64,000 nucleotides of DNA from a phage: assembly GCA_025677605.1 (NCBI GenBank), contig GCA_025677605.1_4110.1; one strand, written 5' to 3'. The notes below the pieces were generated by a model. It searched no databases. It was not told the origin of the DNA and was given only the letters and a program-made list of their open reading frames with translations. The translations under genes were made by a program, and so were the position numbers. Position 1 is the stretch's first letter. Every line of letters starts with the position of its first letter. Of the stretch, positions 16,835-63,315 are shown in pieces.

Positions 16835-17524
16835 TTATTTCCACCAACTGGTATCACGTCCATTAGATAAAGACTCATTGTACTGATGCCTGAAATTTGT
16901 ATCAGGATTATTAATCATAGTACTAATAAAATCAAATTTAGTGTTCTCTTGGATATATTCAATAACACTATCTTTAAACTTGATAGTACTGAAATCTAAA
17001 TCCAAATGTTCATACGATACTGGATGACAAAACTCATGTGTACGCAATGATCTCATCGTATCCTTAATGTATTGTACGGTGTTAATCATTGCTTCATAGT
17101 CTGGCATTGCACGCATCATCATAAGCTGGAAGTGTTCTTCCTCTGTCATTGATTCATCTAAATCAATAACAACTTCTTCATTCTTAGAGTCATATACTTT
17201 AATCTTACTATTCGTAGGGTCAAGCATAGCCCAATCAGGGTACAGGCATGTTTTCCAGAAAGGATTATTACACTGAAACATACTGACCAGTACTTGATTT
17301 TTATCGAAGATTGCAAAACCAAGATCATTACTGGGCTGTACTTCACACACATATATATCATATGCAGAGTCTTCAGAGCAGAATGATCCAACTACATTTG
17401 ATATATGTGAATATGGAGTTTCTCTTGATTTTAATTCAAAGGCTCTCTCCATGCGGTTAATCTGTGGTTGTAAAGTAATTACACCCCTTAGTACATATAA
17501 AATTCTATCTAAATCTTTAATCAA
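16835..17524 (-). CDS. family B-like protein (outlier copy, divergent)
   Basis: Contains MTEEEHFQLMMMRA, i.e. the acidic-x-FQ core without the Ser. Confidence 0.55.
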   Translation of the reverse strand: MIKDLDRILYVLRGVITLQPQINRMERAFELKSRETPYSHISNVVGSFCSEDSAYDIYVCEVQPSNDLGFAIFDKNQVLVSMFQCNNPFWKTCLYPDWAMLDPTNSKIKVYDSKNEEVVIDLDESMTEEEHFQLMMMRAMPDYEAMINTVQYIKDTMRSLRTHEFCHPVSYEHLDLDFSTIKFKDSVIEYIQENTKFDFISTMINNPDTNFRHQYNESLSNGRDTSWWK

Positions 17525-36930: not shown

Positions 36931-37480
36931 TTAATTCCTCCAATAATTCTTCTTGTGTTTCAGTACTTTCATTGTATAAATTATTGAAAGCGGAACACTC
37001 CCCACTACCAAGTTGCATTGATAGTTGATATACAAAATCAGCTTTAGCTATCATATCATAACCAGGAAGCAACGACAACTGGAAAAGATATGCTTCTCGC
37101 TCTTCTGGATTTTGTAGCTCAGGTGCAATATGAAGATATTCTTCATCATCATAATAATCATCGTACAAATTTCTGACGATTAATTCGTTAGTTTCTTTGA
37201 GTTTATTCACAGTAAGACTACAATCAGAAACTGAACCCAAAAATTTACTCTCTCTGCCTGATGCCACATAAGAAGCATCAACTGACCATATATTTTTGGT
37301 TTTATGTTGAATGCAGTGTTGTATTTGGATATTAGCATAACGATACAAAGTACTGCAATCAAAAACTAATCGGTACATTGGATTGTTGAAGTAATGAAAA
37401 ATATTCTCTGTTCTTTTTTGTTCATCTAACTTATGAGTAAGTTCTTCTAGTACTTTAAAAATATCAATTAGTGTTTTCAT
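36908..37480 (-). CDS. family B (FQxS) protein
   Basis: EREAYLFQLSLLPG. Confidence 0.65.
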   Translation of the reverse strand: MKTLIDIFKVLEELTHKLDEQKRTENIFHYFNNPMYRLVFDCSTLYRYANIQIQHCIQHKTKNIWSVDASYVASGRESKFLGSVSDCSLTVNKLKETNELIVRNLYDDYYDDEEYLHIAPELQNPEEREAYLFQLSLLPGYDMIAKADFVYQLSMQLGSGECSAFNNLYNESTETQEELLEELNAFLKSL

Positions 37481-38018
37481 GTTCTTTTCTCGTTTGTGCG
37501 TAGTTTTTCAAGTCCTTGAGTAATACTACTAATTGATCATCAGTGAGTAATGATGCTGTTGCACTATATGACATATAATAATTATTGAGATTGAAATCAA
37601 ATTTATAGTTACGTGCTAAAGCTTCAATCGTAAGTGCATCAGTGATTAATTTATCGTGAGTTACAGAACTCTGGAAATTTTGTTCTTCTAAATTCTCAGT
37701 ACTGAACAACGCAATAGGATCATATGATGGTTCTTTGTAATCCACTGCCTCTTTCATTCGAGGATTACGTGAAATAAAAGCCCAAGAACTGTCATATGAA
37801 AAATCAACAACACAGTCTTCCTCATCACCTTCATGTGGGTAAACGCACAGAATAGTTTTATTTTCTTCTGTGAACATCTGCTGCGTTGCAATACCCTCTC
37901 CTGTGTATTCAATTTCATAATCGAAACCGATTCTTAATTTACGTCCCTGTGAATTACACGTTTCAAGAAGTTTTCCCAGTTCGTTGTAAATTTGTAAGAT
38001 TAATAGGTAATTGTCCAT
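37464..38018 (-). CDS. family B (FQxS) protein (start trimmed)
   Basis: LEEQNFQSSVTHD. The ATG at 38018 (MDNYLLILQIY) is preceded by GAGGA. The ORF-track extension to 38075 runs through the MCP terminator hairpin. Confidence 0.65.
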   Translation of the reverse strand: MDNYLLILQIYNELGKLLETCNSQGRKLRIGFDYEIEYTGEGIATQQMFTEENKTILCVYPHEGDEEDCVVDFSYDSSWAFISRNPRMKEAVDYKEPSYDPIALFSTENLEEQNFQSSVTHDKLITDALTIEALARNYKFDFNLNNYYMSYSATASLLTDDQLVVLLKDLKNYAQTRKEHENTN

Positions 38019-38054
38019 ATGATATCCTCGGTTAAATAATATTAAAATAATAGC

Positions 38055-38087
38055 AAAGAAAAAAGCCAGAGTCAATACCCTGGCTTT
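38055..38087 (-). terminator. intrinsic terminator after the MCP gene
   Basis: Minus strand reads AAAGCCAG-GGTATTGACT-CTGGCTTT followed by TTTCTTTGC (a continuous U-rich tail). Confidence 0.8.
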
Positions 38088-38091
38088 AAAA

Positions 38092-39504
38092 TTATTTCAC
38101 GTTAAAAATCGAAGTGGCTTTTTGTAAAGCATGTACTTCAGACTGTTGATTGTCTACCATCATCATTGTGTCCTTGACATGCTCCGCATTTTGCTGTACT
38201 GAACGGTCCATCATATTAACACTCTCGGTAACCTGAAGGATTGCAATGCTTTGTTGTTCAGCCATTATAGCTAAATCATCAATGAACTGCAAGAGAGAAT
38301 CAACATTTTTTACAATAGAATCAATATCACTTGCAGTTTCGTTGATTTGTTCTATTCCTTGGTTGTTGTTTTTTACAGAGTTATCAACGATTTCTTTAAT
38401 TTCTTTACTACATGCATCACATTTCATTGCTAAGTTACGAACTTCCTGTGCAACAACAGAGAATCCACGTCCATGTTCACCCGCTTTAGCAGCCTCAATA
38501 CTGGCATTTAAAGAAAGAATATTAGTCTGGAAAGCAATAGTTTCTATATTTTTGAGTATAGCAACTATAGCATTAGAATCTTCTTTAATTCTATCCATCT
38601 GCTCTTTGCAATTATTAATACTTTCAATTGCATTAGTACTGGATTCTTTTGTAGTTTTAACCATACTTTTTGCAGTATTGGAGTTATCAGATGTATTTGC
38701 AGATGTAGCACTTAATTCTTCCATAGCAGCAGCGATTTGAGTAAGTGCCTGTCCTTGTGTTTCAGTTCTGAAAGCTAAATCATTACTTTTACTTTCGAGA
38801 TGATAGGAGTTGCTTTTCATTGACTGAACTGTAATTTGTACTTGTTCAATTGCCTCACGCATAGCTGATATTGTTTTACTAAAAGTCTGTGCAAATTCTG
38901 AGTTGAAATGATTATTTTGTATTTCTAAAGTAATATTGCCGTCTTCAGAATTCACCGAATGGGCAATTCGTTGAATTTCATCTGCTTCATTTGCATCTTT
39001 CTCCATAATATACGCAACGTACATCAGAACTATTGCCTGTACTACTACATATATTGCGTGCTCTATAATGTGCCATAACGAAATATGGTGAAAAGAAAAC
39101 ACGAATAATATTGGAATTCCAGCACCCTGTAACAATCCAAATAATAAATGATGTATAGCAATCAGTACTGAACCTGCTAATACACAACGCCAGTCACGCC
39201 ATACAATCAATAAACTTAAAAAGACAAAAACTGTAAAGTGCCATTCCACCATCCCTAAGCCAAGATGTATTAGTAACGCACTCCAGCACATCACATTTAT
39301 ACTTAACAACGTTCGAGTGAACGCATTACTTTCAACAAATAGTAAAGGAGTTAGCATTACTAATAATAAAACTGCACCGATTAGTGCAATAATAAAACTA
39401 CCATGAACAACACCGGAAACTAAAGTAACAGCAAATAAAGCCCCTATACAACATAGTACTAAATTATCGGCTTTTTTGCGTATATTTTCTAAATTACTTT
39501 TCAA
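38092..39504 (-). CDS. methyl-accepting chemotaxis protein (multi-TM N-terminal module plus MCP signalling domain)
   Basis: The near-invariant MCP hairpin-tip sequence is present: [37 protein letters not shown]. There is a methylation-helix-like segment, [19 protein letters not shown]. The N-terminal 170 aa or so has about 6 hydrophobic helices carrying His residues ([31 protein letters not shown]). No obvious HAMP domain. Confidence 0.9.
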
Positions 39505-40049
39505 CGTACTTCTCCATAATTTAAATTATCATCAATATATTTTTTTAATAACAAATGCATTTTCTCTAGTTCCTCTTGGCTTTTGGTAAGTAACTTGTCC
39601 ATAATTGTAATTTCATAATGATCTTCTAATAACCTAAGTAATTTATAACCCATTTCTAGCTTATTATAAGTTAATTGATCATATGACATAGCAGCCATGA
39701 ACATTTGTTCTTTGAAAGTGTTTGAATCAATTTTAGCTACAGCTAACTTCTCGTCATCTTCATAAGAATGTTTTACCAGTATCTTAGTGTAGCGTGATAC
39801 ATTATATAGACGAATTTCACTATCTCCGCGTAGAATTTCCATCTTGTATTCTTGTCTACGTTGTGTTGCATTAATGATCTTTACGACATAACCTAAACCA
39901 CTAATGAACAATGTAATATTAGAATATACTGATGGAGATTCTTTTGGGTTGATATTTAATTCACCTAACTCAAAATTAACAGTCTTATTATCAGGACTGT
40001 TTTTAAAAATATAAATCATGCATTCAATAATATTTACAATGCTATCCAT
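39501..40049 (-). CDS. family B-like protein (degenerate core), translationally coupled to the MCP gene
   Basis: [15 protein letters not shown] sits at the position of the FQxS core. The junction with the MCP gene is a 4-nt overlap. Confidence 0.55.
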
Positions 40050-40080
40050 AAAATACGCTCTCTTTTAAATAGGTTACAAT

Positions 40081-40109
40081 ATTCTAACACTCTACATTAC
40101 TAATGTCAA
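40081..40109 (-). promoter_or_regulatory. sigma70-type promoter TTGACA-N17-TAGAAT
   Basis: Read on the minus strand in the 82-nt gap upstream of 39501..40049, immediately downstream of a terminator. Confidence 0.65.
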
Positions 40110-40116
40110 CCTATAA

Positions 40117-40143
40117 ACGAAAAAAGACCCATCAGGGTCTTTT
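40117..40143 (-). terminator. intrinsic terminator overlapping the stop of 40132..40683
   Basis: Minus strand reads AAAGACCC-TGAT-GGGTCTTT followed by TTTCGTTT. The TGA stop lies in the loop. Confidence 0.8.
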
Positions 40144-40683
40144 AAATGCTCGTAAGTCTCTCAGAATGTTTGGTAGAGTGCCTTGTTCCATTACAGAATT
40201 CAGTACATTAAGATCCATTGTAAGATAGAAACCATCAGGGATGTAATCACGCACTAACTTATCCAACTCAATGATATCCATTGTTAACTGATCATATAGA
40301 GTACTGTACTGGAAAAGCACCCCATCGTCAACATTTAAATCTATTAAGTTATCACCGTGATTGCATTGGCAAAAGTTATTAGCAAGATTTTTATGTTTAA
40401 TGCTGCTTATGTACACATATGGATAACGTGTGAGTACACGATTCTGTGCCTCCGAACAACCATCTGCAATTTCTTCATCTGATAACTCAGGGTGCAAAAG
40501 AAACAATGAACTATCACTAATGTACAAAGTACCTATAGAACCGTTTTTATTATTACTGTGTCGAATATAACATGAACCAAGATTTGATATAGGTTTTATA
40601 TCTTGTAGTACAATAGGAAAAAAGTTAATAATAACTTTAGATAGATCTTTTAGTACTGGGTTTATTGTTAATGGTAGACTCAT
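40132..40683 (-). CDS. family B (FQxS) protein
   Basis: DDGVLFQYSTLYD. Confidence 0.65.
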   Translation of the reverse strand: MSLPLTINPVLKDLSKVIINFFPIVLQDIKPISNLGSCYIRHSNNKNGSIGTLYISDSSLFLLHPELSDEEIADGCSEAQNRVLTRYPYVYISSIKHKNLANNFCQCNHGDNLIDLNVDDGVLFQYSTLYDQLTMDIIELDKLVRDYIPDGFYLTMDLNVLNSVMEQGTLPNILRDLRAFKRP

Positions 40684-41312
40684 TTCATTATCCTTGAACC
40701 GCCTATATAGGTATCGTTAAAATAATTATCATTTTCAAACGCCATGTTATTCAAATCAGCAAGGTCATCGAAGTAACCGCCTTCAATACATATTTCTTTG
40801 AATACGTCACTGTACTTGAATAAATTTACTAAACTAAAGGTAATGTCTGCTCTTTGAACTTTAGTACATTTAAGGTGCTCATGTAGATATGGGAAAACAA
40901 TAGTATATAATAAATCATTCGGTTCATATATTAAACTATTTTGAAAGAATGATTCTTCTGAATAATCCATAACATTGAGGTTCAATCTAAGTACCTCATT
41001 ACTATCCAGTACTAATGTTTTATCTGACAAATCGAAGTTCAAGCAGTGCGTATAAAATGGTCCCAAATTACCAACTCTATTTTTATCTAAACCACTAGGA
41101 CTGAAATCAAGCCATACTTCATTCAACTCACTATCATCTGATTCTATGTACTCAAGAACATTGTTATGAAAACGCATGTCATAACATTCAAGGAACTTAT
41201 CATCCTTCAGACGTGGTAATATGTCCGTTAATGCTCGTGCATACGCAATGCAGTGCTTATACTCTAGGCGATGAAAAACGTACTTTGAAATTGGTTTTCT
41301 TTTTGTACTCAT
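40680..41312 (-). CDS. family B (FQxS) protein
   Basis: SEESFFQNSLIYE. Confidence 0.65.
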   Translation of the reverse strand: MSTKRKPISKYVFHRLEYKHCIAYARALTDILPRLKDDKFLECYDMRFHNNVLEYIESDDSELNEVWLDFSPSGLDKNRVGNLGPFYTHCLNFDLSDKTLVLDSNEVLRLNLNVMDYSEESFFQNSLIYEPNDLLYTIVFPYLHEHLKCTKVQRADITFSLVNLFKYSDVFKEICIEGGYFDDLADLNNMAFENDNYFNDTYIGGSRIMK

Positions 41313-41316
41313 TCAA

Positions 41317-41931
41317 TTAATCTCCAATTGTACATATGTTTTCTTCAGTAATACTTTTTAATTTAAGTAATAAACCATCCCAGTCCTGTTCTTTGAATAT
41401 TTCAGGTTCTAATTTGATATACTTTGTTAATGGTAATTTAGGGGATAGATTTTTACAAAATTTAATAGCATCAATAACACAGGCGTTGTGAATTAATGAG
41501 TACTGAAACAATGTTTCGTCGAGTACATCATCATCTGGAATATCCAGAAATTCAGGTTCATGTGTTGTGACATAGTATTCTTCTTCTTCATCCATATCAA
41601 TGTAGACTTTATTAAGATAATTAAGTCCAGATGAACTAATAAAAATACCATCGCTTCTTGAGATACAAATATAAGAACTGGGCATATATATATCTAAATC
41701 TCTTTCTCTGTTGTGGTCGGTCAATTCTGTTCTTACGCAGATGATAGCTTTACAATTTTCATCCATTAAATCAAACCATTTGTCACCACGGTCAAATTTG
41801 TATGTAGAATTTTGTTCAGTACTGGTATGAAATGAAATAACACGATTTGTTAGACGCCATGCAAATTCATGAATACGAATTAGTTCTAAACTTATCTGAC
41901 TAATTTTATCTATTGTTTCGTTTGTCAGCAT
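41317..41931 (-). CDS. family B (FQxS) protein
   Basis: LDETLFQYSLIHN. Confidence 0.65.
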   Translation of the reverse strand: MLTNETIDKISQISLELIRIHEFAWRLTNRVISFHTSTEQNSTYKFDRGDKWFDLMDENCKAIICVRTELTDHNRERDLDIYMPSSYICISRSDGIFISSSGLNYLNKVYIDMDEEEEYYVTTHEPEFLDIPDDDVLDETLFQYSLIHNACVIDAIKFCKNLSPKLPLTKYIKLEPEIFKEQDWDGLLLKLKSITEENICTIGD

Positions 41932-42412
41932 TTTTTAAAATCCTTACTTGTTTAATAAAGTGCTTCATTGAAGCAAATTCAAAACTAATTCTCTGAAACT
42001 CACTATATTTTTTAAAGTACGATAGAATAAACATAGCTTTAAGTTCAGAGTCATTGTAAATTAATGAATTTTGGAAATAATTTTCATCCGTTAAATCCGT
42101 AATGTACGGAAGTATATGATTAATAAATTGGGCTTTTCCTCTTTGGTGTGAAATATATTTTATATCAGAACCATCTGAACGAAATAGAATATAGTCTGTT
42201 TTACCTTTCTCAAACATAGAATGAGCCAGACGATCTTCAGCTTTAGTATGAAAATATATACTATGAGCACCGTGACGAATATTGAAAGACGATTCAGTAC
42301 TGTGATGGATAGCGAAATATCTATGCAAATTAACTTCATTAACGTACAAATAAGTTATTGTATCAAGACAATCCTTTGCGAACTTTATTAGTTCTGATAG
42401 TTTCCTCGACAT
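41906..42412 (-). CDS. family B (FQxS) protein
   Basis: TDENYFQNSLIYN. Confidence 0.65.
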   Translation of the reverse strand: MSRKLSELIKFAKDCLDTITYLYVNEVNLHRYFAIHHSTESSFNIRHGAHSIYFHTKAEDRLAHSMFEKGKTDYILFRSDGSDIKYISHQRGKAQFINHILPYITDLTDENYFQNSLIYNDSELKAMFILSYFKKYSEFQRISFEFASMKHFIKQVRILKNADKRNNR

Positions 42413-42421
42413 ATAGCACCT

Positions 42422-42892
42422 TTATAAATGTTCCAAAAATGTATTAAAGAAATCCAAATCAATATAAAAGGAATTAAGTCCTTCGCTTCTTAAGTATGTT
42501 ACAATCACAGATAGTAAAAGTATATTACTTGTATATAATAATGAGTTTTGAAAGTACATCTCTTCATTACATATTTCAATATATGAAGGTAATACTTTAA
42601 AATCACTGTCATGAACACAAATTTTATCAAGGTATGAATGGTACTGAATATAATAGTAATCAAAGCTCATGAATGATTCATTATCACACACTGATTCCCC
42701 TATGTTTAAAACTTCAGTACCAGCGTAATACCATGCATTATGAGTATTTGATTTTTCAAACACTTTGTCAAATTTACCATTATTACCAGCATGATAAATC
42801 TTCATCAAAATCTTTGCAAAATCAATACACGCCGCATATGAATCGTATCGGATAACGTGACCATCCAGTACTAACTCGTCGGATTCTATCAT
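42422..42892 (-). CDS. family B (FQxS) protein
   Basis: CNEEMYFQNSLLYT. C-terminal SFYIDLDFF. Confidence 0.65.
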   Translation of the reverse strand: MIESDELVLDGHVIRYDSYAACIDFAKILMKIYHAGNNGKFDKVFEKSNTHNAWYYAGTEVLNIGESVCDNESFMSFDYYYIQYHSYLDKICVHDSDFKVLPSYIEICNEEMYFQNSLLYTSNILLLSVIVTYLRSEGLNSFYIDLDFFNTFLEHL

Positions 42893-50094: not shown

Positions 50095-50577
50095 TCAACC
50101 CCTGTGAAGTTTATTAATACCGTTATCTACAGTTTTCTTTACGTATCTGTAATCGAAATAGAAGTTCTCAGAACCAATACTTTTAAAGTACCACATAATT
50201 ACAATACAATCAAGTTCTTCTTCATTGTATACAGTACTTTGTTGGAAGTAATACTCTTCACTATCCCACGGACCATCCAGTACTGCACACGGAATTATAA
50301 TGTCATCGGTATCGTGGACAGTACTGTAGATGGTAATATCTCCACCATTAACATAGACCATGTACTCATTATGCATATCAATGAAACATTCATAATCATT
50401 AGGGTCGGTATCTAGTACGCACGTTTCTGTATCTGGGAAGTCATTATCAATGAGGTTATCAGAGACATAATATTGAGTACTTGTGTCTTTGAAAATACCG
50501 TAAACTGAACCTTCTTTTGCCATATTCATGTACTCATGAATCTTCTTTGCTTCTTGTAATGCTCTTTTTAAACTCAT
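50095..50577 (-). CDS. family B (FQxS) protein, recent triplet copy 3
   Basis: GPWDSEEYYFQQSTVYN. C-terminal NFYFDYRY. Confidence 0.7.
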   Translation of the reverse strand: MSLKRALQEAKKIHEYMNMAKEGSVYGIFKDTSTQYYVSDNLIDNDFPDTETCVLDTDPNDYECFIDMHNEYMVYVNGGDITIYSTVHDTDDIIIPCAVLDGPWDSEEYYFQQSTVYNEEELDCIVIMWYFKSIGSENFYFDYRYVKKTVDNGINKLHRG

Positions 50578-58948: not shown

Positions 58949-59170
58949 TTAAACACCTATTCCATTAGCAATAGCAGTACTTAACGCTAACAAATACTTC
59001 TGTACTGCTTGCTCTTGATGATCTGTACCTAAAAGTATATACACCCATAATTCACTGTAGTGTACATCTTCTGTATAAGGGTTGTTGTAACTTTTTGATA
59101 ATATAGCATCAAATTCAGATGCATGAACCCTTGTGAACTTAAGAATATCTTGTTGTGTTATGATTCTCAT
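58949..59170 (-). CDS. family C (LGTNYQ) small protein
   Basis: ILLGTDHQEQAVQKYLLAL. Confidence 0.6.
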   Translation of the reverse strand: MRIITQQDILKFTRVHASEFDAILSKSYNNPYTEDVHYSELWVYILLGTDHQEQAVQKYLLALSTAIANGIGV

Positions 59171-59382
59171 AGCTTTTCCTGTATAAGCTTCTTAAGTATT
59201 TCTATGTGTGAATTAACAGTTCTTTCTTGATGCTGTGTTCCTAAGAGTATCAGTACTATCATCTCTGAACGCAAAAGATTTTTTTCAAGTTCCCCTATAT
59301 CAGTTCTTGTATCAAGTACTAAAAATTTGTGATTATTCTTTCTGAATAGTTCTAAGTACTCTTGATTTGATATTGTCTTCAT
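59167..59382 (-). CDS. family C (LGTNYQ) small protein
   Basis: ILLGTQHQERTVNSHIEIL. Confidence 0.6.
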   Translation of the reverse strand: MKTISNQEYLELFRKNNHKFLVLDTRTDIGELEKNLLRSEMIVLILLGTQHQERTVNSHIEILKKLIQEKL

Positions 59383-59609
59383 AGTTTATCCCTGATGCCA
59401 TTTAAAAGTGCTCTAATATGCTCCTGTACGAATTTGTACTGACTGTCTGTTCCTAGAGTGAGTAACAATCTTAAATCTGAACTTTTGATATGATATTCTA
59501 AATCATTATTTGATTCTTGCCTCAGTTTCTGAAAGGATGAGAAGTTTGCTGCCATTAGTTCAATGTATTCTGCTGTTCCTAGGGGTTTGTGTATGTGCTG
59601 TCTGTGCAT
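59379..59609 (-). CDS. family C (LGTNYQ) small protein
   Basis: LTLGTDSQYKFVQEHIRAL. Confidence 0.6.
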   Translation of the reverse strand: MHRQHIHKPLGTAEYIELMAANFSSFQKLRQESNNDLEYHIKSSDLRLLLTLGTDSQYKFVQEHIRALLNGIRDKL

Positions 59610-59815
59610 TTTAATTGTATTACCCTTTTAAGTGTATTAATATAATCCACGATGATGTGTTCTTGATAGTTAGTTCCTATAGTAGCTAGAACATAGATTT
59701 CACTTATTAGAATATTTTTTTCATCCTGTGATAATTCTTCTGACCAGCTACGATGCAACTTTGGAATTAAACTACTTAATAGTTGGTTGTATTCAGTAGG
59801 TGAAATGATTTTCAT
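59579..59815 (-). CDS. family C (LGTNYQ) small protein
   Basis: ATIGTNYQEHIIVDYINTL. Confidence 0.6.
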   Translation of the reverse strand: MKIISPTEYNQLLSSLIPKLHRSWSEELSQDEKNILISEIYVLATIGTNYQEHIIVDYINTLKRVIQLKCTDSTYTNP

Positions 59816-60027
59816 TTACATCTTCTCAGTACTGATTCTTTAAGTTCATCGATGTAGTCCTCAACAAATTGTTCTTGTAGGTTTGTTCCGAGATGTAACA
59901 GTACTCTTAAATCTGCTCTAAGTACTTCTTTGTCATCTTCATCTATATCAGACAGTGATATGTTTAAGAATTTACTTGAATTCTCTATAAGTAATATTAC
60001 TTCATCACCTTCGCTTAAAATTTTCAT
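59812..60027 (-). CDS. family C (LGTNYQ) small protein
   Basis: LHLGTNLQEQFVEDYIDEL. Confidence 0.6.
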   Translation of the reverse strand: MKILSEGDEVILLIENSSKFLNISLSDIDEDDKEVLRADLRVLLHLGTNLQEQFVEDYIDELKESVLRRCK

Positions 60028-60239
60028 AATCTTTGTGTTTTCCTCGACAGTAGGTACAGGTAACGTTCAGTGCATTGTTCTTGATAGTTTGTTCCTAATA
60101 AATGAACTAATTGTTGTTCAGCTATAGAAAGCTGTTTATCTTCATAACAAGCGTATCGTTGTTTCCTATGGTATTCTTTATTGATAACATCAAGGATGAT
60201 AACACCGTATTCGTCATCTGTCAAGTGTTTCATGTGCAT
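60024..60239 (-). CDS. family C (LGTNYQ) small protein
   Basis: HLLGTNYQEQCTERYLYLL. Confidence 0.6.
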   Translation of the reverse strand: MHMKHLTDDEYGVIILDVINKEYHRKQRYACYEDKQLSIAEQQLVHLLGTNYQEQCTERYLYLLSRKTQRL

Positions 60240-60471
60240 TTCTTTTTCTTATATGTTTAGTTAAAAGGTATATTAGTTTTCTTACGTACTCGTCTTGATA
60301 GTTAGTCCCTAATAGTGCAAGAAGTTTTGCTTCAACTAAAGCTAATTGTCGTTCTTCAAATGTGTGTTCCAGAATGTACTTGGGGTTTGATTTTTTAGAA
60401 ATTGCACTATTAGTCTTCATTATAATCTTATGATATTCATTGACTGTTAAGATTTTTATATATTTGGTCAT
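60214..60471 (-). CDS. family C (LGTNYQ) small protein
   Basis: ALLGTNYQDEYVRKLIYLL. Confidence 0.6.
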   Translation of the reverse strand: MTKYIKILTVNEYHKIIMKTNSAISKKSNPKYILEHTFEERQLALVEAKLLALLGTNYQDEYVRKLIYLLTKHIRKRNAHETLDR

Positions 60472-60691
60472 GTATCTTTTCCTGAATAGTCATTTTAAGA
60501 TATCTAAGAATCGATCGAACATAATACTCCTGTCTATCGGTTCCAAGAAAGTACAGGAGTTGTTGATATAATACTTCTGCACTCCTTGCAGCAGGGGTTT
60601 GATTTGGGTCTTTTGGAAGTTGATTTGTATGTTTTCTGGATTTAATTATTCTTTCTTTTATTTCATCGTCTGTTAAGTATATCATTTGCAT
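60437..60691 (-). CDS. family C (LGTNYQ) small protein (start trimmed)
   Basis: YFLGTDRQEYYVRSILRYL. The ATG at 60691 gives MQMIYLTDDE, matching the sibling N-termini MQMINLS.DEY, and sits in the recurring ATGCAAATGA junction. Confidence 0.6.
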   Translation of the reverse strand: MQMIYLTDDEIKERIIKSRKHTNQLPKDPNQTPAARSAEVLYQQLLYFLGTDRQEYYVRSILRYLKMTIQEKIHDQIYKNLNSQ

Positions 60692-60918
60692 TTTATGTTC
60701 CTCACATGAATTGTTTGGATTAAACATTCAATCCAAGATGTAACATATCTTGTTTGATATTGTGTGCCTAAGAGACTCTGCATTTTAAACTCTGCTTCAA
60801 GTTCATATCTCTTTTCTATCGTAAAGCTTAAATGACCATATTCTGCATCGTATCTTCTCAGTGATTCCCCAATTCTATCAAATCTTTCTGCTAAGTTGAT
60901 GTTATTCACAGTATTCAT
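60682..60918 (-). CDS. family C (LGTNYQ) small protein
   Basis: SLLGTQYQTRYVTSWIECL. Confidence 0.6.
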   Translation of the reverse strand: MNTVNNINLAERFDRIGESLRRYDAEYGHLSFTIEKRYELEAEFKMQSLLGTQYQTRYVTSWIECLIQTIHVRNIKCK

Positions 60919-61178
60919 CGATCAGTACACCTCAGTGGTTGGGTCATTTGATAAAAGTACAGCTTACCTCTGATTTCCATTAACAACTCGGCTATGACGC
61001 GATTTACTTCTGTCTCTTGATAGTTTGTTCCTAAGAAGACACCCATCTTTAACTCACGATGCATAATCATCTTCTTACTGTGTTGAATTTCTTGGCTGTA
61101 ATAGATTGCATTACGTTTAGGTGAGATTTTTGCTAGTCGCTCGTTATATTCATCTTGACTTAAATTAATCATTTGCAT
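60915..61178 (-). CDS. family C (LGTNYQ) small protein
   Basis: VFLGTNYQETEVNRVIAEL. Confidence 0.6.
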   Translation of the reverse strand: MQMINLSQDEYNERLAKISPKRNAIYYSQEIQHSKKMIMHRELKMGVFLGTNYQETEVNRVIAELLMEIRGKLYFYQMTQPLRCTDR

Positions 61179-61393
61179 TTACTTTGGACCTCATTTTGAA
61201 GTGCATTAATGACCTTCAGTACAGCACTCGCTTGATAGTTTGTTCCTAAGACTGAAAGCATCTTGATCTCATTTACTACAATCCACTTATTTGATTGTTC
61301 AATAATGTGACTTTCATAAATGGCCTTGCGTAATGAATAAGTTTTTGCAAGACGTACATAATATTCATCTTTACTTAAATTAATCATTTGCAT
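61169..61393 (-). CDS. family C (LGTNYQ) small protein
   Basis: SVLGTNYQASAVLKVINAL. Confidence 0.6.
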   Translation of the reverse strand: MQMINLSKDEYYVRLAKTYSLRKAIYESHIIEQSNKWIVVNEIKMLSVLGTNYQASAVLKVINALQNEVQSKCK

Positions 61394-61602
61394 TTACTTT
61401 TAACCTCTTTCTGGAGTGCATCAATCCATAGGTCTATATACGTTTGTTGATAGTTTGTGCCTAAGAGTGCCTCTACATAGAGTTCAGCTACCTTTGCGTG
61501 CTTTAGGTCAACAGGGATGCTCTTATCGCTTGATAACATTCTCCTTCTGCTGGTGCATGTTTTCAGAAGCCTGATGTATTCAACACCTTGTAATTTTCTC
61601 AT
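61384..61602 (-). CDS. family C (LGTNYQ) small protein
   Basis: ALLGTNYQQTYIDLWIDAL. Confidence 0.6.
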   Translation of the reverse strand: MRKLQGVEYIRLLKTCTSRRRMLSSDKSIPVDLKHAKVAELYVEALLGTNYQQTYIDLWIDALQKEVKSKCK

Positions 61603-61814
61603 TCTCTGGATATCACCTTGTTACGTAGACTTGCTAACCATGCGTCAGTATAGATGTTTTGATAGTTTGTCCCAATGAAGATAGATAGCTTCATTTCAGT
61701 TATTATAACACATTTGTCCACTTGTGCAATAGATTTGTTTAAAGAAATACTAGAAACTTTTGCTTGTATAGTTCGCAACAGCCTGTAATATTCATACCCA
61801 CTAAGGATTTTCAT
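61599..61814 (-). CDS. family C (LGTNYQ) small protein
   Basis: IFIGTNYQNIYTDAWLASL. Confidence 0.6.
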   Translation of the reverse strand: MKILSGYEYYRLLRTIQAKVSSISLNKSIAQVDKCVIITEMKLSIFIGTNYQNIYTDAWLASLRNKVISRE

Positions 61815-62061
61815 TCTCTCGTCTCCAGACTTCCGTTCTTATATGTTGTTGATATGCTTCCAGATAGTTCTCTATTGCCTTAGAGATTGTTTGTGTATCG
61901 TCGCCCGTCATCAGTACAAGCATCTCTGCTTCACAGTGTATAAGTCTGCTAATATCATTAGTGAGTTTATCAGATACCGTATCATAGTGTTTGTGGATTA
62001 GTTTCTGAAATAGTTTAACGTACATAATGTGATTTATTCTGGATCGCATTGTCTTTTCCAT
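61801..62061 (-). CDS. family C-like small protein (divergent core)
   Basis: VLMTGDDTQTISKAIENYL at the equivalent position. Confidence 0.5.
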   Translation of the reverse strand: MEKTMRSRINHIMYVKLFQKLIHKHYDTVSDKLTNDISRLIHCEAEMLVLMTGDDTQTISKAIENYLEAYQQHIRTEVWRRENENP

Positions 62062-62285
62062 TCTCTTTTGGCCTGTCGGGTTTTATACGCTACAAGGTTT
62101 CTTAGTGCATTGATATAACGATCAGTGAAGATATCTTGTTTATTAGTTCCAACGAATTTAAGAAGAAACACGTCACCATTAACTACATCATTCTCAGGGG
62201 AAGGATAAAGTTCATTGTTCTTGCGAAGGGTGTTTAGTAAAGAGAATAGGGCAGATTGATACTCAGTGCTTGATAATACTTTCAT
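62034..62285 (-). CDS. family C (LGTNYQ) small protein
   Basis: KFVGTNKQDIFTDRYINAL. Confidence 0.6.
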   Translation of the reverse strand: MKVLSSTEYQSALFSLLNTLRKNNELYPSPENDVVNGDVFLLKFVGTNKQDIFTDRYINALRNLVAYKTRQAKREWKRQCDPE

Positions 62286-62509
62286 TAGTTCATTCCCTTT
62301 CTTTCTATATGTTTCATAAGAACATTAAGATACTCACCCACAAACCTATTCTGATACTGCGTCCCCATGAATTCAAACAGCCATACTTCAGCAACCATTT
62401 CTTCAATTTCATTCCAAGATAAGTACATCATAGTGAAGTAAATGTGGTTCTCTTTTTGAGATGCACTCCTTGAGCGAGCCTCGTATTCAAAGTTATTAAT
62501 GCAGTTCAT
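62285..62509 (-). CDS. family C (LGTNYQ) small protein
   Basis: EFMGTQYQNRFVGEYLNVL. Confidence 0.6.
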   Translation of the reverse strand: MNCINNFEYEARSRSASQKENHIYFTMMYLSWNEIEEMVAEVWLFEFMGTQYQNRFVGEYLNVLMKHIERKGMN

Positions 62510-62718
62510 AGTTTACTCCTGATGTATTTCTCAAGAGCTATTAGATACTCTTGGACATAAGATTTCTGGTGGTCAGTTCCTAAGAAGACACCCAGAAGTA
62601 ATTCTTTTTCCATAACTTTTGATAAGTATACATCATCCCTGTCTGCATATATCAGCAAGATTTCAATCTGCTTAGAATTGTAACGTTTCCTATATTGCTC
62701 TGGTGTTAATATAATCAT
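62506..62718 (-). CDS. family C (LGTNYQ) small protein
   Basis: VFLGTDHQKSYVQEYLIAL. Confidence 0.6.
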   Translation of the reverse strand: MIILTPEQYRKRYNSKQIEILLIYADRDDVYLSKVMEKELLLGVFLGTDHQKSYVQEYLIALEKYIRSKL

Positions 62719-62924
62719 AGTTTACTCTTTATATCTTCAATTAAAAATCCAATACAATCATTGACATACTCTTCCTGAAAGTTAGTCCCCAGTACAGCCA
62801 ACATGCGATACTCTGCTGACCTTATCGCTCTTTCAGTTTTTGGTAAGTTACGTGGTATAGTTACCATCAATTCAAGATACTCCACCATACGACTCAATGC
62901 TTGTCTTTGTGTTATAGTTTTCAT
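62715..62924 (-). CDS. family C (LGTNYQ) small protein
   Basis: AVLGTNFQEEYVNDCIGFL. Confidence 0.6.
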   Translation of the reverse strand: MKTITQRQALSRMVEYLELMVTIPRNLPKTERAIRSAEYRMLAVLGTNFQEEYVNDCIGFLIEDIKSKL

Positions 62925-63121
62925 AATTTACACCTCGCTCGTATGTCAGCTTTCAAAGATTCCAAATAGTGCGTTACCCACACTTCCTGATAGTTGGTTC
63001 CCATCGTAATCAACAGGTACAACTCAACTCTTTCTAAGTGCACATTGCTTTGGTAAATCCTTGCCGTGTTTTTACGTAGTATATGATGATATTCATCTTG
63101 GGTTAATGTACGCATTTTCAT
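62921..63121 (-). CDS. family C (LGTNYQ) small protein
   Basis: ITMGTNYQEVWVTHYLESL. Confidence 0.6.
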   Translation of the reverse strand: MKMRTLTQDEYHHILRKNTARIYQSNVHLERVELYLLITMGTNYQEVWVTHYLESLKADIRARCKL

Positions 63122-63315
63122 AGTTTACCATTTATCTCTAAACATAACTCTTTTACATATAGTTTAACATATTCATTTTGTAAGTTAGTTCCTAAGAATA
63201 GTTCCATAACTAATTCACGTTTATAGGCATTACCACGTTTATGAGACTTATACATTATCATAGCCATGTTATTGATAAGTCTTTCGTGATGCTCTTCTTG
63301 TGTTAAAATACGCAT
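63118..63315 (-). CDS. family C (LGTNYQ) small protein (first gene of the array)
   Basis: LFLGTNLQNEYVKLYVKEL. Confidence 0.6.
   Translation of the reverse strand: MRILTQEEHHERLINNMAMIMYKSHKRGNAYKRELVMELFLGTNLQNEYVKLYVKELCLEINGKL

Follow-up and report, generated by a model that had tools for sequence, protein, structure and literature searches.

The MHYT domain, which Galperin et al. are said to have described in 2001, is reportedly a sensor of six transmembrane (TM) helices with conserved histidines near its outer face, for which metal binding and gas or redox sensing were proposed. The aerotaxis transducer HtrVIII (Htr8) of Halobacterium salinarum likewise has six TM segments, followed by a methyl-accepting chemotaxis protein (MCP) domain, and its histidine-bearing TM helices have been proposed to bind haem and to sense O2 (Brooun et al. 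1998, as summarised in PMC13401364). In the Escherichia coli receptor Tsr, a glycine hinge is thought to permit the bending that is tied to ON/OFF switching, and side-chain replacements at the hinge impair or abolish chemotaxis in both Tsr and Tar (PMC6606802). Here, we analyse a chemoreceptor gene in a 64,000-nucleotide (nt) stretch of phage DNA (GCA_025677605.1, contig GCA_025677605.1_4110.1; hereafter the window). The gene (38092-39504, minus strand) encodes an MCP of 470 amino acids (aa) in which a six-TM membrane sensor module (residues 1-167, 39004-39504) is followed by a linker (residues 168-215, 38860-39003) and by a 36-heptad (36H) kinase-control hairpin with methylation bundle, flexible bundle and tip (residues 216-470 plus stop, 38092-38859). 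On balance, we favour the reading that it is a functional 36H transmembrane chemoreceptor, captured whole from enterobacteria, held under selection and coupling its sensor to the host array.

The signalling domain is intact. MCPsignal (PF00015) is the sole Pfam match of the protein (residues 281-434, 127.5 bits against a cut-off of 34.6, E 6.3e-37) and residues 216-469 align gap-free to Tsr 264-517, so the truncation or frameshift feared in the original prediction, which was made from the letters alone, was not borne out. The canonical signalling tip quoted there was recovered as well: E343 and F348 occupy the positions of Tsr E391 and F396, and the tip is about 79% identical to the Tsr 371-408 core (hand count on the alignment). 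The phage protein is a complete 36-heptad receptor of the same class as the host receptors, with a host-compatible tip. In Tsr register, its adaptation sites are T249, Q256, E263, D445 and Q454; a single canonical methylation motif is present, EELSAT, in which EE is 262-263 (Tsr Q311), and Q256 corresponds to Tsr E304. The linker of about 48 residues (168/171-215) aligns in register with Tsr HAMP 216-263. It has no match to the Pfam HAMP models (PF00672, PF18947). In the full-length AlphaFold2 model (predicted local distance difference test, pLDDT, 85.5), however, a helix extends to residue 184, a coil spans 185-202 and a single long helix runs from 203 to the hairpin turn at 341. The segment between TM6 and the methylation bundle is thus predicted to be a HAMP-like helix-connector-helix, in which an extension of TM6 is joined to a second helix by a connector of about 18 residues, and the earlier remark that no HAMP domain was obvious goes too far.

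Modelling of the N-terminal 182 residues with AlphaFold2 (pLDDT 91.3) placed helices at 4-33, 37-56, 61-81, 86-102, 105-127 and 143-181. The longest periplasmic loop of the MCP is 15 aa, and the protein therefore has no periplasmic ligand-binding domain. Together with conservation across 149 diverse members, the model upholds the initial description of about six TM helices with conserved histidines. The signature shared by these members comprises G84 (100%), E87 (96%), H89 (99%), F90 and F93; H118 (95%), H119 (100%), F122 and Q126 (99%); and H149 (99%), V153 and a Y/W-R-D-W cytoplasmic turn. The phage module has every residue of the signature G84, E87-x-H89-F90, H118-H119-x-x-F122-x-x-x-Q126 and H149-A-x-x-V153, and it retains 24 of the 26 family-conserved N-terminal positions. 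Motifs ExHF, HHxxF and HAxxVV hold the conserved histidines of TM4, TM5 and TM6, and the helix boundaries put the polar signature residues (E87, H89, H118, H119, Q126 and H149) in the half of these helices that is nearer the periplasm. From the helix boundaries, we infer a buried site at which the conserved His, Glu and Gln residues would bind metal or haem; by analogy with HtrVIII, such a cofactor would most plausibly report on redox state, O2 or metal status.

This module belongs to a widespread set of proteins. Against a module profile that includes the phage sequence itself, the phage protein scores 206.9 bits (E 2.5e-56). An exhaustive hidden Markov model (HMM) search with that profile over 1.84 billion representatives returned 5,862 proteins at E <= 1e-3, of which 513 reach E <= 1e-30. 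Almost all of the 150 best matches have lengths of 450-520 aa, and the longer proteins that were checked carry extra HAMP or PAS domains ahead of MCPsignal. The module is covered by no Pfam or NCBIfam model. In a word-indexed database of 5.8 billion proteins, the N-terminal 180 aa alone had no match, and the profile version of the same search gave 12. Thus, the six-TM, His-lined MCP sensor appears, from these sequence searches, to be a large undescribed bacterial family. On a 121-kb ENA contig, a 317-aa protein joins the module (E 9e-19 against the profile) to HisKA (PF00512); because of this one fusion, the His-rich module is not strictly MCP-specific. The first reading of the locus had noted a faint likeness to MHYT-type modules. 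Neither the phage module nor two bacterial modules match PF03707 at E <= 10 and the phage MCP sequence has no MHYT motif; membership of that family was rejected and the likeness survives as an analogy only.

The window shares about 98.7% identity with Escherichia phage A4 (ON286972.1), a 355.5-kb Asteriusvirus isolated on E. coli LF82 (ON286972.1; PMC9355613) that fails to lyse its host in broth (PMC9355613). The A4 copy of the gene, A4_379 (USL83455.1), is annotated in GenBank as 'methyl-accepting chemotaxis protein'; the A4 paper makes no mention of chemotaxis (PMC9355613). A4_379 is the same gene at the same position in an array of paralogous genes described below, with 98.9% protein identity, and differs from the window MCP by 4 amino-acid and 21 synonymous changes. 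In a third assembly, a 23.6-kb Logan contig (SRR30543657), the MCP gene again lies between the same phage genes, and the three assemblies have zero indels over 2,251 bp. The GC content of the gene is 34.5%, against 33.7% for the window. Since three assemblies concur and the GC content is phage-like, contamination or chimerism with host DNA, another worry raised at the outset, was excluded. The full GC amelioration of the gene in turn indicates long residence in the phage. Between isolates, we counted 20-21 synonymous and 4-5 non-synonymous differences, a ratio of per-site non-synonymous to synonymous polymorphism (pN/pS) of about 0.05, and no non-synonymous difference falls within residues 1-181. 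The pattern indicates that the gene is kept under purifying selection. Over the three isolates, 38 sites vary in the 1,413 nt of the MCP gene and 4 in the 549 nt of the upstream 182-aa open reading frame (ORF), and synonymous divergence is 0.07 in the MCP gene versus 0-0.04 in its neighbours; the higher value could stem from recombination or from a differing gene history.

Where did the gene come from? Full-length bacterial homologues, annotated as MCP only, are 37-40% identical to the phage protein over 99% of its length. They include proteins of Enterobacter, Pseudocitrobacter, Pantoea and Siccibacter, and the closest relatives are chromosomal MCPs of Enterobacter, Kluyvera and Scandinavium, an enterobacterial affinity that answers the homologue search proposed with the original prediction; homologues from Cupriavidus and Paraburkholderia are about 31% identical. 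A neighbour-joining tree places the phage protein, on a long branch, as sister to the Enterobacteriaceae clade. Identity to that clade is 34-40% in the sensor, 31-48% in the linker and 35-39% in the signalling domain, while the linker is 10-23% identical to most of the more distant, largely Burkholderiales homologues (33% to Cupriavidus). Because the three regions are similarly diverged and the phage protein occupies the sister position, we conclude that the gene was captured whole from an enterobacterial source. A scan of one genome per species found the module in 360 species; the 80 of these that were listed include Scandinavium, Kluyvera, Enterobacter, Buttiauxella, Dryocola, Hafnia and many Burkholderiales, and none of the 80 is an Escherichia. 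Equally, none of 5,426 complete E. coli genomes matched the N-terminal DNA of the Enterobacter homologue, at a detection limit of roughly 65-70% DNA identity, and a plasmid collection held no close relative of the phage MCP. The Enterobacter homologue is a stand-alone chromosomal gene adjoining exbBD. Within Enterobacteriaceae the context is vertically inherited metC-exbBD synteny, which has nothing in common with that in Burkholderiales; the neighbouring genes of the bacterial homologues offered no hint of function. The source lineage was probably of the Enterobacter/Kluyvera/Scandinavium type, not E. coli, with capture by an ancestor of A4 long ago.

Among 50,697 phage records, a full-length version of this MCP occurs in A4 only, which agrees with the view that this host-type gene is rare in phages. 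Other Asteriusvirus genomes in that collection match only 5-9% of the 24 kb around the gene in DNA sequence, and all of them lack the MCP gene. Two scans of IMG/VR, one with an alignment-derived pattern that missed the Thr variant of the phage and a second with the phage sequence, found no related viral contig, and BFVD held no comparable viral structure. Two further phages with genomes of 270-290 kb do, like this one, carry complete MCP genes, both filed as hypothetical proteins: Vibrio phage vB_VmeM-Yong XC31 (QAX96201.1, 610 aa, dCache_1-HAMP-MCPsignal) and Microcystis phage MaAM05 (WMU93215.1, 508 aa, HemAT-like protoglobin-MCPsignal). Their sensors (dCache_1 with HAMP, and protoglobin) are unrelated to the six-TM module, and the two genes represent independent captures by large phages. 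Many 'phage' records with MCP matches look like bacterial contigs or host-DNA chimeras, among them Salmonella whole-genome shotgun contigs, a 254-kb 'Acinetobacter phage MD-2021a' and a 126-kb 'phage P1' with an aerotaxis receptor gene; counts of phage-encoded MCPs drawn from such collections would be inflated. In the literature we found no functional or comparative treatment of phage-encoded chemoreceptors, and two reviews of jumbo phages did not mention chemotaxis; for phages of ammonia oxidisers, CheR, CheY and MCP have been listed among chemotaxis-related genes. The existence of the gene is already on record as A4_379 in GenBank and is no new discovery as such. What is new here is an undescribed membrane sensor and a hinge-less 36H chemoreceptor in a virulent jumbo phage.

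The MCP gene is the second of a two-gene unit, for which the ORF list, a consensus scan and hairpin folding confirmed the ORF coordinates, the 4-nt overlap, the promoter and both terminators that had been proposed. All of its elements are on the minus strand. The upstream boundary is the intrinsic terminator of the preceding paralogue gene (40132-40683), located at 40116-40143 and formed by a 9-bp stem with 4 GC pairs and a T-run (hairpin 40143-40122 plus T-run: folding free energy -12.5 kcal/mol, z -3.2, 0 of 200 shuffles as stable). It is followed at 40081-40109 by a sigma70-type promoter, TTGACA-N17-TAGAAT with an extended -10 TG, which matches the consensus at 11 of 12 positions. The 182-aa ORF (39501-40049) starts with ATG and is predicted to be translationally coupled to the MCP gene, which starts with TTG, preceded by GGAG 7 nt upstream; the TTG start of the one and the TGA stop of the other share the four letters TTGA. 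The TTG start is supported by the near-invariant D13 and the 'IRxxADxL' motif (residues 5-15), which align with the bacterial homologues. The unit is closed at 38055-38087 by an intrinsic terminator with an 11-bp stem and a T-run (hairpin 38087-38062 plus T-run: -15.5 kcal/mol, z -4.6, 0 of 200 shuffles as stable). A second promoter-like site, TTGACT-N17-TATTAT with TG (38047-38075, 10 of 12 matches), has its -35 element within this hairpin. From here, transcription would resume through the 16 genes that follow, which are tightly packed and leave no intergenic gap of at least 35 bp down to 29737. Both promoters and both terminators are identical in the three independent assemblies.

Promoter-like sites of all strengths occur at chance level in the 6.5-kb region around the unit (36 found versus 36.1 expected). 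Sites with at least 11 of 12 matches, counted over the whole window, are distributed differently: 20 are on the gene strand versus 2 on the other, and 9 of the 20 are intergenic, although intergenic DNA makes up 17% of the window. This strand bias and intergenic placement make the promoter at 40109-40081 credible and no chance match, and the 20:2 asymmetry suggests heavy use of host RNA polymerase across the region. Among the near-consensus sigma70 sites of the window, eleven have an extended -10 TG, and three sites are perfect 12/12 matches (45172-45144, 23471-23443 and 15855-15828). As to the label 'moron-like' that had been attached to the unit, it is apt insofar as the unit has a predicted promoter and terminator of its own; it fits less well in that this is a virulent phage with many other such promoter-punctuated units. 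From its layout, the MCP unit would be one of several terminator/promoter-bounded transcription units in the array and no unique insert. The flanking genes (40132-40683 and 37464-38018) have no tblastn orthologue in phages other than A4, and for that reason an empty insertion site could not be located. Rfam and transfer RNA scans of the window were empty.

The array around the unit holds one expanded family. An iterated HMM search gathered 41 of the 108 selected window ORFs of at least 90 aa into it, located between about 31 and 59 kb on the minus strand with a single outlier at 16835-17524; examples are 40132-40683, 40680-41312, 41906-42412, 42422-42892 and 50095-50577. Both outer neighbours of the MCP unit join this family at E about 1e-18. 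The 182-aa ORF, which had been called a degenerate member of it, was not picked up by the iterated search at thresholds as loose as E <= 10. BLAST gave it no partner in the window, and its top phmmer match has E about 0.01; at the sensitivity of BLAST, phmmer and iterated HMM search, its membership was rejected and the earlier assignment is not upheld. It matches phrog_36809 (function unknown) at E 1e-9 and has tblastn matches in phage A4 only, from which it differs by 3 synonymous changes and 1 non-synonymous change. In many of the paralogues, an acidic stretch precedes a [YLF]FQ[NYL]S motif (ENYFQNSLIY and EMYFQNSLLY, for example), which superficially resembles the TEV-type protease site ExxYFQ(S/G), and the paralogue at 50095-50577 matches phrog_9317. 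Further along the minus strand, at 58949-63315, a run of about 20 small ORFs (65-96 aa), closely packed and for the most part overlapping, occupies what had seemed to be long non-coding gaps.

If the MCP works as a receptor, host RNA polymerase would transcribe the two-gene unit early in infection, and the protein would insert in the inner membrane, its N and C termini both cytoplasmic, and form mixed trimers of dimers with host 36H receptors (Tsr, Tar and others). No CheW homologue is found in A4, so that the phage MCP would rely on host CheW and CheA, either adding an input that E. coli lacks or biasing CheA output. The input would be read by the His/Glu/Gln cluster in TM4-TM6, and the infected cell would swim differently during the long, poorly lytic jumbo-phage infection. 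That host taxis or the chemosensory array is manipulated, as the original prediction suggested, is something that we infer, and the case is strengthened by the pN/pS of about 0.05, the 36H match and the lack of a phage CheW. A bolder version is that the phage gives its E. coli host a new sense, through a metal or haem site responsive to redox, O2 or metal, and thereby steers or parks the infected cell at the places most favourable to phage production or transmission, a form of 'virocell navigation'; we put this forward tentatively, as a possibility that we think less likely than not. Since two other jumbo phages independently carry MCPs, one of them with an O2-binding globin sensor, receptor capture would then be a recurrent strategy of such phages. 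Several features weigh against an ordinary, fully responsive receptor. All three residues of the glycine hinge (Tsr G340, G341 and G439) are replaced, by A292, I293 and A391, and among the bacterial relatives compared this is so in the phage copy only: in the 28 relatives, Gly is found at these positions in 100%, 75% and 89%, respectively. Tsr methylation sites 297 and 493 are replaced by T249 and D445, EELSAT is the only canonical methylation motif kept and the NWETF tail is missing. As hinge replacements impair chemotaxis in Tsr and Tar, a normal stimulus-response may be compromised. The convergence of the conserved sensor residues on one site is, moreover, drawn from modelled helix boundaries, and what a virulent phage would gain from taxis is a matter of speculation. 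The loss of hinge and methylation sites suggests that the phage copy would have a shifted output set-point and would depend for adaptation on neighbouring host receptors.

The same losses could be read more radically, namely that the MCP co-assembles with a locked output and forces CheA permanently on or off, so that swimming is abolished or fixed regardless of stimulus; the gain might be that the infected cell is kept in place or saves energy, and both the jamming of the array and such a gain seem to us rather unlikely. Besides the hinge, methylation sites 1 and 4 and the tail, this explanation can draw on the distribution of changes: at positions with at least 85% agreement among bacterial relatives, the phage protein deviates at 17 of 65 in the signalling domain versus 2 of 26 in the sensor. 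Yet a protein that jams the array would need no sensor, whereas here the near-invariant sensor residues are all retained and residues 1-181 show zero non-synonymous changes between isolates; most of the signalling deviations, furthermore, are conservative exchanges, such as R to K, A to S and V to I, in keeping with AT-biased drift. The conserved sensor points to stimulus-dependent signalling, and the loss of hinge and adaptation sites to an output that is shifted or partly locked. Degraded hinge and adaptation sites would also suit a protein whose polar, array-forming or membrane-anchoring scaffold is reused in a phage process other than taxis, for instance to localise the 182-aa protein. The MCP gene is joined by TTGA to this phage-specific ORF, and the bacterial homologue stands alone without such a partner; but start/stop overlaps are the rule throughout the array, so that the coupling is no specific evidence of partnership, and the CheA/CheW-contacting tip and the sensor residues are the best conserved parts, as a signalling role predicts. 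We regard scaffold reuse as improbable. Slightly less probable still is a neutral passenger, a horizontally acquired gene that persists without a fitness role in a hypervariable accessory region. Such a region is what the sparse coverage in other Asteriusvirus genomes, the DNA-level match in A4 only and the restricted occurrence of the gene would look like, but a pN/pS of about 0.05 over 25 substitutions, a frame intact in three isolates with conserved promoter, ribosome-binding site and terminator, and a fully ameliorated GC content that implies long residence all speak for a gene in use. An assembly chimera or host contamination is barely conceivable: several other 'phage' records with MCP matches are clearly bacterial contigs, but nothing favours this at the present locus, where gene order is the same in three indel-free assemblies, GC is phage-like, the nearest bacterial protein is only about 40% identical and the E. 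coli genomes searched showed no counterpart of the module. A receptor that couples its own sensor to the host array, with an output that may be shifted, is what we retain.

Phage auxiliary genes are mostly known for rewiring metabolism, and a chemoreceptor under selection would extend their reach to host behaviour. Every step of the E. coli chemotaxis pathway can be measured quantitatively, and the compact phage copy could serve as a handle for studying the His-lined six-helix MCP family in that organism. As a 36H receptor that is conserved in other respects but has naturally lost its hinge, it also offers a natural test of the role of the hinge. If our reading of the six-TM module is true, it defines a large new membrane-sensor family of more than 5,000 clusters.

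How, then, does the phage MCP relate to known systems? At the level of fold, its sensor resembles the six-TM domains of AC9 (6R3Q), AC5 (8SL3), Rv1625c (7YZI) and ImcA (8WCN), a likeness confined to the fold, at 9-15% identity; these class III adenylyl cyclases and the diguanylate cyclase ImcA have other output domains and do not have the His/Glu/Gln signature. MHYT (PF03707) is, like the phage module, a six-TM membrane sensor with conserved histidines, but the phage module has neither the Met-His-Tyr-Thr motif nor the threefold two-TM repeat. The closest described analogue is HtrVIII, in which six TM segments are fused directly to an MCP domain, the match being one of architecture only. With E. 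coli Tsr and Tar (PDB 6S1K, 8C5V, 3ZX6 and 1QU7), the phage MCP shares a hairpin of equal length, the conserved tip and a linker of HAMP size; Tsr and Tar have a periplasmic four-helix ligand-binding domain and two TM helices, whereas the phage protein has no such domain and six TM helices. The same three-part architecture is found in the 483-aa MCPs of Enterobacteriaceae (Enterobacter soli, E. wuhouensis, Kluyvera, Scandinavium, Pseudocitrobacter, Buttiauxella and Siccibacter), which have in common with the phage MCP the sensor-signature residues, the 36H class and the absence of a pentapeptide tail. They differ from it in 13-25 additional N-terminal residues, in a larger number of Q/E adaptation sites and in a glycine hinge (GG plus G) that they have kept.

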